Source: an uncultured Thermoplasmatales archaeon (GTDB taxonomy: Archaea; Thermoplasmatota; E2; DHVEG-1). From it: a stretch of 17,367 nt of DNA. Numbering within the stretch: the stretch's first letter is position 1; every line of letters begins with the position of its first letter. Position numbers and translations under genes: made by a program. The notes beneath the pieces are model-generated. The model worked only from the letters and a program-made list of their open reading frames with translations. It made no database searches and was not told the DNA's origin. Shown here piece after piece: positions 8,455 to 10,645 of the stretch. The stretch lies in contig CAZYFW010000016.1 of NCBI GenBank assembly GCA_964646685.1, positions 1 to 17,367 of the forward strand, given 5' to 3'.

Positions 8455-8529
8455 TGCTCCCGACGGGATTCGAACCCGTGTAGCTAGCTCGAAAGGCTAG
8501 AATGATTGGCCGGACTACACCACGGGAGC
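8455..8529 (-). tRNA. tRNA-Glu (anticodon UUC)
   Basis: Reverse complement folds as GCTCCCG/CGGGAGC acceptor, anticodon arm CTAGC-CTTTCGA-GCTAG, T arm ACGGG-TTCGAAT-CCCGT, discriminator A. No encoded CCA. Confidence 0.9.
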
Positions 8530-8538
8530 AATTTTTAG

Positions 8539-8609
8539 CAGCCCTGAGCGGATTCGAACCGCTGACGCTAGCTCCAAAGGCTAGAATGTTGCCACTACAC
8601 CACAGGGCT
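8539..8609 (-). tRNA. tRNA-Gln (anticodon UUG), A1-U72, discriminator G73
   Basis: Reverse complement: AGCCCTG TG GTGT-AGTGGCA-ACAT T CTAGC-CTTTGGA-GCTAG CGTC AGCGG-TTCGAAT-CCGCT CAGGGCT G. Lies 9 nt upstream of tRNA-Glu on the same strand. Confidence 0.9.
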
Positions 8610-8720
8610 ATTTACTATAGTATGGCGCAGTGGATTGTAATTTTGATATTTATTATTTTGGTTATCTCAAAATGAGAAATCGATTAATACGCTTTCGCCG
8701 CTATAAATTGGATAAATTAG

Positions 8721-8792
8721 TAGCCCCGAGTGGATTCGAACCACTGTCGCTAACTCTAAGGTCAACATGATTGTCCACTACAATACGGGGCT
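8721..8792 (-). tRNA. aberrant Gln-type tRNA-like gene (6-nt anticodon loop CUUAGA; possible pseudogene or non-canonical decoder)
   Basis: Reverse complement: AGCCCCG TA TTGT-AGTGGACAA-TCAT G TTGAC-CTTAGA-GTTAG CGAC AGTGG-TTCGAAT-CCACT CGGGGCT A. The acceptor stem and positions 8-9 are identical to tRNA-Gln(CUG). The T arm is perfect. The loop between the best 5-bp anticodon stem (8750..8754 / 8761..8765) has only 6 nt (8755..8760). Confidence 0.55.
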
Positions 8793-8847
8793 ATTGTTAT
8801 ATTTACGTTTAATGGTGATAAATTGGTTATTTAATTGACCAATCAAA

Positions 8848-10536
8848 TTATTTCTTGTTTTGTTGCATCTGCTGAACTTTTGCCCAAGTGTCACGTAATA
8901 CTACAGTTCTGTTGATAATGAGATTCTTCTCAGTCTTATCTGGATCTATGCAGAAATATCCTTGTCGTTCGAACTGGAATCTATCAAATGGTTTTAATTT
9001 ACCAACAGTAGGTTCAACCTTGCATGATTTTAATATCCCGAGCGAATCAGGATTAAGAAAATCCTTAAAATCGGCATTTTTTTGCCCGGCAGGATTTTTT
9101 ACAGTAAATAATCTATCATAAAGTCTAATTTCTGCATCGATTGAATGAGCCGCTGAAACCCAATGAAGTGTTGATTTTACTTTCCGCCCATCAGCGGCAG
9201 TGCCTCCACTGGTTGCAGGATCAATTGTACATCTAAGCTCAACTACTTTGCCATTATTTTTAACTGCTTTTTGGCAGGTTACTAAATAAGCATACCTGAA
9301 TCTTACTTCTTGACCAGGTGTCAAACGATAGAATTTCTTTGGGGGATCCTCCATAAAATCCTCTTGTTCAATAAATAATACTTTTGAAAATGGAATTTTT
9401 CGAGTTCCAGCCTTTGGATCTTCAGGATTATTTATCGCCTCCATCTCTTCGACTTCATCTTCGGGATAATTTTCAATTACTACTCTAAGTGGATTAAGAA
9501 CGCCCATGAACCGTGGACAAGTTTTATTTAAATCATCTCTGACACAATGTTCAAGGAACTCAAAGTCAACCATGCTGTTTACTTTTGCAACACCAATTCG
9601 CTTGCAGAAATTTCTGATAGAATCAGGCGAGTAACCTCGTCTATGCATTCCACTGATAGTTGGTAATCTAGGATCATTCCATCCATTTACATATTTGCCT
9701 TCTACCAATTCTAAAAGCATACGTTTGCTCATTATTGTATATGTTAGATTCAGACGAGCGAATTCTATCTGTTGTGGATGATAGACCTCAATAGCATCAA
9801 GGAACCAATCATAGAGAGGGCGATGGTTCTCAAATTCAAGAGTACATATTGAATGAGTAATTCTTTCGATGGAGTCTTCCAGACCGTGTGCCCAGTCGTA
9901 CATGGGATAAATACACCATTTATCTCCGGTATTATGATGGGGGGCATGTAATACTCTATACAATACTGGATCACGCATATTGAGATTCGGATGGCTCATG
10001 TCAATCTTGGCCCGAAGTACCTTCCCACCGTCAACAAACTCACCTGCTTTCATCCGCTCAAAAAGATCGAGGTTTTCTTTCACCGAACGATCACGATAAG
10101 GGCTATTTTTGCCGGGTTTTGTTAGAGTGCCGCGTTGCTCGCTTATTTCTTTAGCACTTAAGTCATCGACATATGCTTTACCGGCTTTTATTAACTGAAC
10201 TGCATATTCGTACATCTGATCAAAATAATCTGAGGCAAAATAAAGCCGGTCTCCCCAGTCAAATCCGAGCCATTTTACATCTTCAATAATTGATTTGACA
10301 TATTCTTTCTCTTCTTTTGCAGGATTGGTATCGTCAAAACGAAGGTTACATAGGCCCTTGTATTCTTCAGCTATGCCAAAGTTGAGACATATGGACTTAG
10401 CATGACCGATATGTAAGTACCCATTTGGCTCGGGTGGAAATCTTGTGTGGACGCGACCATCATATTTATTTGTCTTCAAGTCCTCATCAATTATGTCTCG
10501 AATAAAATCCCTTTTTTCATCAATAGCTGAATCCAT
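8848..10536 (-). CDS. glnS: glutaminyl-tRNA synthetase, bacterial type
   Basis: Collinear by eye with E. coli GlnS: [36 protein letters not shown] (HIGH), [68 protein letters not shown] (KMSKS equivalent), LRDTWAKV C-terminus. 562 aa with no eukaryote-type N-terminal extension. Confidence 0.95.
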
Positions 10537-10573
10537 ATTGCCTCACCACATATATGTTTAAGAGATTTAAAGA

Positions 10574-10645
10574 CAGCCCCGCCCGGATTTGAACCGGGGC
10601 CTAGAGATCCAGAGTCTCTTATGTTAACCACTACACTACGGGGCT
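10574..10645 (-). tRNA. tRNA-Gln (anticodon CUG), A1-U72, discriminator G73
   Basis: Reverse complement: AGCCCCG TA GTGT-AGTGGTTA-ACAT A AGAGA-CTCTGGA-TCTCT AGGC CCCGG-TTCAAAT-CCGGG CGGGGCT G. Its 3' end lies 37 nt upstream of the glnS start codon on the same strand. Confidence 0.9.

Follow-up and report, generated by a model that had tools for sequence, protein, structure and literature searches.

Native tRNA-Gln isoacceptors probably retuned for an acquired bacterial-type glutaminyl-tRNA synthetase in Thermoplasmatota

How did a bacterial-type glutaminyl-tRNA synthetase (GlnRS) come to stand among the tRNA-Gln genes of an archaeon, and have those tRNAs changed to suit it? The question is raised by a 17,367-nt stretch of DNA from an uncultured Thermoplasmatales archaeon (contig CAZYFW010000016.1 of assembly GCA_964646685.1; hereafter the window, at its full length), in which the GlnRS gene glnS lies in the cassette tRNA-Gln(CUG) - glnS - tRNA-Gln(UUG) - tRNA-Glu. 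The indirect route to Gln-tRNA, which relies on a glutamyl-tRNA synthetase that is non-discriminating (ND-GluRS) and the amidotransferase GatDE, is used by "almost all archaea" (PMC8762117), and in 2022 all known archaea were described as being without GlnRS (PMC9499178). The latter source gives A73 as the archaeal norm for tRNA-Gln and G73 as the bacterial one, and cites this difference as a proposed reason for the absence. Likewise, reviews attribute to Tumbula et al. (2000) the hypothesis that archaeal tRNA-Gln (A73, A1-U72) is unreadable by GlnRS. GlnRS in Heimdallarchaeia receives a passing mention in a 2024 preprint, and our literature search found no paper on an archaeal GlnRS with retuned tRNAs. 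Here we argue that the archaeon's own tRNA-Gln isoacceptors have probably been retuned for the acquired enzyme.

The glnS gene (8848-10536, minus strand) is intact and encodes 562 aa that match TIGR00440 with 743.2 bits (cut-off 425.8) and the E. coli GlnRS structure 1gtr with 707 bits. The archaeal GluRS model gave 354 bits, below its own cut-off; the alternative that the open reading frame is an archaeal GluRS is excluded by the NCBIfam and PDB scores, and the true GluRS lies on another contig (C4). The HIGH and MSK motifs are conserved, and so are (E. coli numbering) the Gln-pocket residues R30, D66, Y211, C229 and Q255, the anticodon-reading residues R341, R402, R410 and Q517, and K270, R520 and L136. 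In GlnRS, Leu136 serves to open the first base pair. D235 is replaced by N, as in sister bacteria (see below). The product is, judging from sequence, a bacterial-type GlnRS with predicted glutaminylation activity. Its host genome, a 1.36-Mb metagenome-assembled genome (167 contigs, 92% complete, 33 tRNAs found), is otherwise archaeal and encodes, besides glnS, an archaeal GluRS and a GatD/GatE pair.

ARAGORN, and Infernal with the Rfam tRNA model RF00005, called four minus-strand tRNA genes in the window. tRNA-Gln(CUG) (10574-10645, 67.5 bits), 37 nt upstream of glnS, and tRNA-Gln(UUG) (8539-8609, 62.9 bits) align over their full length with 7/7 acceptor pairs, in agreement with ARAGORN, and both form a canonical cloverleaf with a 7-nt anticodon loop, anticodon CUG or UUG, and no non-canonical pairs flagged by Rfam. 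They are 72 and 71 nt long, begin with A1-G2-C3, and carry G73, A1-U72, G10 and a GUGU/ACAU D-arm with a D-loop of 8 and 7 nt, respectively; their 3' ends read ...CGGGGCU-G and ...CAGGGCU-G, and CCA is not encoded in either sequence. The preliminary description of this DNA had assigned G73 to both genes, and Infernal confirms this to the base, with the discriminators at plus-strand positions 10574 and 8539, both of them C. A mis-set 3' boundary is ruled out by the full-length alignments with 7 acceptor pairs. The further readings of that description, namely G10 in both canonical genes, A73 in tRNA-Glu(UUC) and T10 (U10) with A73 in an aberrant Gln-like tRNA, were equally accurate. tRNA-Glu(UUC) (8455-8529, minus strand, Rfam 58.8 bits) starts 9 nt after tRNA-Gln(UUG) and has the old-type D-stem with a U13.U22 mismatch. 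The anticodon stem-loops of these two neighbours are identical save for nucleotide 36, as had been remarked, but this holds for the window and not as a conserved feature, being found in 4/19 neighbouring pairs in relatives.

The search for glnS covered 61 related genomes, 37 from the family of the window and 24 from neighbouring families, and tRNA-Gln genes were gathered by BLAST, ARAGORN and a covariance model trained on 80 distinct genes (R1, whose underlying RNAalifold structure is without the D-stem, and which was used for searching only). glnS was found in 22/37 genomes of the family and in 0/24 of the neighbouring families. Among the family copies, two are truncated where a contig ends, another is divided between two contigs, and a further one carries an in-frame internal deletion; the last (G023, contig C88:2409-3710, L124) has lost about residues 75-230, most of the acceptor-binding insertion, and keeps an open frame of 469 aa and G73 tRNAs on its flanks, in a genome in which GatDE was not found. 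Both tRNA-Gln genes have orthologues in relatives, with tRNA-Gln(CUG) at the same place, and the cassette order, with tRNA-Glu(UUC) as its final member, is conserved across genera. All family tRNA-Gln genes adjoining glnS are G73 and 71-72 nt long. Counted over 33 glnS-positive family genomes, G73 tRNA-Gln outnumber A73 by 60 to 6, the latter being retained genes of the old type. The comparison with relatives without GlnRS, which had been proposed as a check, gave A73 in 50/50 tRNA-Gln from 32 glnS-negative genomes, all 73 nt long, so that G73 is no accident of sampling. The sole apparent exception is genome G002, with a G73 tRNA-Gln(CUG) and no glnS. It is uninformative as a refuting case, being a scaffold with gaps of 100 N in which no class Ic synthetase, not even GluRS, was found, and the genome search yielded no tRNA-Glu(UUC), tRNA-Gln(UUG), GatD or GatE either.

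Three differences are fixed between the A73 and G73 classes, and they are the same in both isoacceptors. Besides the change from A73 to G73, U22 is replaced by A22, so that the U13.U22 mismatch common to old tRNA-Gln and tRNA-Glu becomes a U13-A22 pair, and C20a is lost or changed, shortening the D-loop from 9 to 7-8 nt. The D-arm change had not been part of the preliminary description. G10, which had been counted there among the adaptations, is present in both classes, including all A73 tRNA-Gln of relatives; it is ancestral, and hence no adaptation. The two G73 isoacceptors are 86% and 82% identical to their own A73 counterparts, 72% to each other and 49-69% to bacterial tRNA-Gln, a pattern indicating that these tRNAs are the archaeon's own, altered in parallel, and not imports.

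The direction of the change can be set beside the origin of the enzyme. The 18 GlnRS sequences of the family form one clade (support 99), and when 24 sequences from five other families are added, 42/42 archaeal GlnRS fall into one clade (support 92), nested in bacterial GlnRS; its immediate neighbours are an unclassified bacterium, Cloacimonadota and Kapaibacteria, followed by Bacteroidota, Ignavibacteriota and Chlorobiota. The tree is most simply read as a single transfer from bacteria. In the sister bacteria (RX1, Kapaibacterium, Pirellulales, Planctomycetota), tRNA-Gln has G73, a GUGU/ACAC D-stem and an 8-nt D-loop, together with U1-A72 and either C3-G70 or U3-A70. The archaeal G73 and D-arm (GUGU, a loop of 7 or 8 nt, ACAU) thus converge on what, from the tree, would be the native substrate of the incoming enzyme, and the G2-C71 and C3-G70 pairs of archaeal tRNA-Gln matched the donor-side tRNAs already. 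N235 and L136 are common to archaeal GlnRS and the sister bacteria, so they are inherited; D235N as an archaeal adaptation to C3-G70 is unsupported as a novelty, N235 being present in the sisters already.

The following course of events would account for these patterns. An ancestor within Thermoplasmatota would have gained bacterial glnS once, and in the family of the window the gene would have come to lie in the cassette described above. The flanking tRNAs would be the host's own archaeal isoacceptors, retuned by A73 to G73, U22 to A22 and a D-loop shorter by 1-2 nt, while features that already fitted (A1-U72, G2-C71, C3-G70, G10, U35 and G36) would have been kept. GlnRS would then charge the retuned tRNAs directly with glutamine, and the same changes may lower their use by the old ND-GluRS/GatDE route. 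Of this, the base states, where they occur and their convergence are observations; which enzyme reads which base is deduced from them.

The fate of that route in the family is in part recorded. Fifteen of the 22 glnS-positive family genomes, one of them a single-contig 2.3-Mb assembly, hold only G73 tRNAs, and GatD and GatE were not found in these 15. Three (G014, G018 and G028) keep normal GatDE, and the 6 retained A73 genes, which are unlinked to gat genes, are confined to these three. The remaining 4, including that of the window, keep only a divergent, adjacent GatD/GatE pair (see below). Co-occurrence of glnS and G73 is weak evidence alone, and more weight attaches to the fact that A73 tRNAs and gat genes, though unlinked, were lost together. 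Additionally, A1 has become G1 (G1.U72) in G73 tRNAs of 7/15 family glnS-positive genomes without GatD/GatE and of 0/7 with GatDE (Fisher, one-sided, uncorrected, p ~0.04). GatDE of M. thermautotrophicus has been reported to read A1-U72 and the D-loop of tRNA-Gln (PMC2943598), and the contrast agrees with a constraint on A1 from GatDE wherever the latter is retained, GlnRS needing only a weak first pair. The claim that A1-U72 is kept along with G73 therefore stands for both window tRNAs but does not extend to these seven genomes. As a side observation, in the neighbouring family f4 an A73 tRNA-Gln(UUG) lies directly beside gatD (e.g. G055 C31:16099-17437 and G047 C84:10831-12161), a linkage that mirrors the glnS cassette.

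In a phylum sample of 401 Thermoplasmatota genomes, 75 carry glnS, and these belong to at least 14 families. Outside the family of the window, G73 occurs solely in glnS-positive genomes (20 genes, in families f10, f12, f13, f40, f42, f43 and f48), in several arrangements. In f43 and f48 both isoacceptors are G73, with GatE; f12 and f40 have one isoacceptor of each kind, and GatE was not found in them; f49 and f46 have A73. In f10 (L278-L313), tRNA-Gln(CUG) is mostly G73, tRNA-Gln(UUG) keeps its old D-arm along with A73, and GatE is retained; CAG and CAA codons may be served by different routes in this family.

Several observations weigh against a simple match between enzyme and discriminator. 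In f24, 14/14 glnS-positive genomes are A73-only, with GatE kept in 14/14, and in f40, f22 and f12 A73 isoacceptors occur although GatE was not found. On the bacterial side, Bacteroidales tRNA-Gln is natively A73 and the GlnRS carries V235 and P136, so the GlnRS family can live with A73. The window tRNAs match the E. coli identity set only in part, having C3-G70, G37 and A38 in place of G3-C70, A37 and U38. The association within the family is not independent evidence either, because glnS and the G73 tRNAs are physically linked. glnS-positive and -negative genomes interleave on the GluRS tree, where 3 or more changes fall on branches with good support, which points to repeated losses or transfers within the family; the 3 independent contrasts on supported branches are all concordant, too few for more than p = 0.25 in a sign test. 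Furthermore, with 92% completeness and only 33 tRNAs found, the window genome may hold an unassembled A73 set. Since glnS coexists with A73 in other families, some of them apparently without GatDE, G73 is best described as a favoured retuning or insulation device and not as a precondition for GlnRS. The co-adaptation of host tRNA-Gln to an acquired GlnRS, which was the core of the preliminary description, is nonetheless the best-supported account, given the bacterial-type GlnRS, the restriction of G73 to glnS genomes, the parallel change in both isoacceptors and the convergence on donor-side tRNAs; what needed correction was the inclusion of G10, the constancy of A1 and an obligatory G73.

A related explanation, compatible with retuning for GlnRS and not exclusive of it, shifts the emphasis from charging to insulation: G73 and the rebuilt D-arm would act mainly as antideterminants against the non-discriminating GluRS and/or GatDE, giving two orthogonal routes and permitting the later loss of GatDE without misincorporation of Glu at Gln codons. 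We regard insulation as possible, at somewhat less than an even chance. The three genomes that combine G73 tRNAs and glnS with A73 tRNAs and GatDE are in line with it, as is the fact that the old U13.U22 D-stem is common to tRNA-Glu and the new one is not. The coexistence of GlnRS with A73 tRNAs elsewhere makes G73 unnecessary for charging as such. A GluRS specificity switch tracking the loss of GatDE was also sought; the alignment yielded no diagnostic column and only conservative partial shifts, so discrimination would have to sit in the tRNA. There is an archaeal precedent as well, in that G73 versus A73 is cited as defining two orthogonal pyrrolysyl-tRNA synthetase (PylRS) pairs (PMC9499178). 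Blocking of GatDE itself is a poor fit for the window genome and for G015, G029, G032 and G143, all of which keep a GatDE paralogue with G73-only sets.

The same distribution could be read as relaxed constraint, with position 73 and the D-arm set free from ND-GluRS/GatDE once GlnRS supplied Gln-tRNA, and G73 a neutral outcome of drift. The persistence of A73 where GatE persists (f24, 14/14, and f49) and the A1 to G1 changes in genomes without GatD/GatE point that way. Drift, on the other hand, predicts a mix of bases, yet only G replaces A, in 80 genes of both isoacceptors that represent at least 8 families, and the same D-arm change accompanies G73, both matching donor-side bacterial tRNA-Gln; we therefore consider this explanation unlikely. 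Least probable of all, in our estimate, is that the G73 tRNAs are bacterial tRNA-Gln that arrived with glnS and later became archaeal-like, or that such tRNAs donated D-arm and 3' end by gene conversion. Bacterial tRNA-Gln(CUG) genes do lie directly downstream of glnS in six loci (L136, L145, L177, L188, L206 and L209), an adjacency indicating that the linkage predates the transfer, and the archaeal UUG-type D-arm, GUGU-AGUGGCA-ACAU, resembles the bacterial GUGU-AACUGGCA-ACAC. The window tRNAs are, however, 82-86% identical to the A73 isoacceptors of the family and far less so to bacterial tRNA-Gln, have A1-U72 and not U1-A72, and share acceptor, anticodon and T arms with the archaeal isoacceptors. 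Within genes of 72 nt, a short conversion tract is conceivable.

The divergent amidotransferase of the window genome (GatDE2; G000, L001 and L002) is encoded by a divergently transcribed pair at contig C3:2692-4569 (minus strand) and C3:4920-6125 (plus strand). Both subunits score above the GatD/GatE equivalog cut-offs, and the GatE is 33-35% identical to the normal GatE of the family. Together with G015, G029, G032 and the second copy of the glnS-negative G022, it falls into a distinct paralogue clade with good support, in which an f43 genome and second copies from f24 and f49 are found as well. A role as an Asp-tRNA-Asn amidotransferase was considered, as neither asparaginyl-tRNA synthetase (AsnRS) nor GatCAB was apparent in the window genome (AsnRS, GatA and GatB were not found there). 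It was rejected because AsnRS is present in 33/36 family genomes, including other holders of GatDE2, and GatB was found nowhere. The missing AsnRS is probably due to an assembly gap cutting the gene; a short class IIb N-terminal fragment lies at a contig end (C7:20336-20482). Our guess is that GatDE2 rescues mischarged Glu-tRNA-Gln. In an extended and rather doubtful scenario, cells would have held a natural pair of orthogonal Gln systems three tRNA changes apart, GlnRS with G73/short-D-loop tRNAs and ND-GluRS/GatDE with A73 tRNAs; lineages would then have sorted to one of them, which would make this the first case in Archaea of the indirect Gln route being replaced in full, with GatDE2 acting on G73 tRNAs to rescue Glu-tRNA-Gln made by a still non-discriminating GluRS. 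A separate observation concerns G029, in which the GatE2 gene is followed, 46 nt downstream, by a third G73-type tRNA-Gln(CUG) (contig C198:3693-3764, L071) whose D-loop sequence is intermediate between the old and new types.

The fourth tRNA gene of the window, the aberrant Gln-like tRNA (8721-8792, minus strand, Rfam 41.3 bits, "tRNA-???" in ARAGORN), carries A73, A1-U72, U10 and an old-type D-arm, and has a deletion in the anticodon loop; with a 6-nt loop, CUUAGA, it does not qualify as an elongator tRNA-Gln. Its orthologue in G028 (L013:3158-3230) is an intact A73/U10 tRNA-Gln(UUG) with glnS on one side and tRNA-Gln(UUG) on the other. Relative to this orthologue, the loop has gone from 7 to 6 nt (CUUUGGA to CUUAGA), and the anticodon stem shows 5 substitutions, all of which keep pairing, one being a compensatory change from G-C to A-U; the acceptor and T arms are perfect. 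The gene looks more like a structure still under constraint than like simple decay. Reminiscent of it is an odd A73 tRNA-Gln-like gene with C33 in place of U33, directly downstream of glnS in G063 (contig C5:71322-71394, L329) of the distant family f13.

The retuning proposed here would provide a natural test of the old explanation for the absence of GlnRS from archaea: a bacterial GlnRS fixed in a large archaeal clade, tRNAs shifted at the discriminator and D-arm toward those of the donor, and the old amidotransferase route then lost in many lineages. The system offers pairs of wild-type and retuned tRNAs for kinetics and living intermediates with both systems, and it may yield tRNA/synthetase pairs that are orthogonal by nature.

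Among the closest known systems is E. coli GlnRS with its tRNA-Gln (1GTR/1QTQ, TIGR00440), whose identity elements take in discriminator and acceptor stem as well as the 10-25 pair (PMC9976931). The window enzyme shares its fold, its catalytic, Gln-pocket and anticodon residues and Leu136, and the tRNAs share G73, a weak 1-72 pair, G2-C71, G10 (as G10.U25), U35 and G36, all of which except G73 are also present in the ancestral A73 tRNAs. The differences are that here the tRNAs are archaeal, with A1-U72 in place of U1-A72 besides the three departures given above (of which C3-G70 matches tRNA-Gln of the sister bacteria Kapaibacterium and Pirellulales), and that the enzyme has an archaeal host, carries N235 and is encoded between its own tRNA genes. 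Compared with the archaeal ND-GluRS and GatDE route, whose tRNA-Gln has A1-U72, A73 and a small D-loop, the window genome keeps an archaeal GluRS and a GatD/GatE pair, and its tRNAs retain the reported GatDE features, A1-U72 and a smaller D-loop than tRNA-Glu has. They depart from the canonical archaeal A73 in having G at the discriminator, their D-stem no longer resembles that of tRNA-Glu, GatE is a divergent paralogue, and in most glnS-carrying relatives GatDE is gone altogether.

A parallel to the coexistence of two tRNA classes is found in the archaeal PylRS/tRNA-Pyl pairs made orthogonal by G73 versus A73 (Zhang et al., 2022, as cited in PMC9499178). As in G014, G018 and G028, two classes of tRNA for one amino acid occur in one cell, differ by G73 versus A73 and a few substitutions, and are each associated with their own enzyme system; orthogonality was demonstrated biochemically for PylRS, whereas here it is putative and would concern direct charging versus transamidation. 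Finally, the GluRS2/tRNA-Gln system of Helicobacter pylori and other bacteria with coexisting direct and indirect Gln/Asn routes (PMC2777447; PMC4206432) resemble the present case in having redundant or transitional routes to Gln-tRNA and in that the acceptor end decides which enzyme acts. They are bacterial, however, and work with a single tRNA-Gln set, in contrast to the duplicated and retuned set of the archaea described here.

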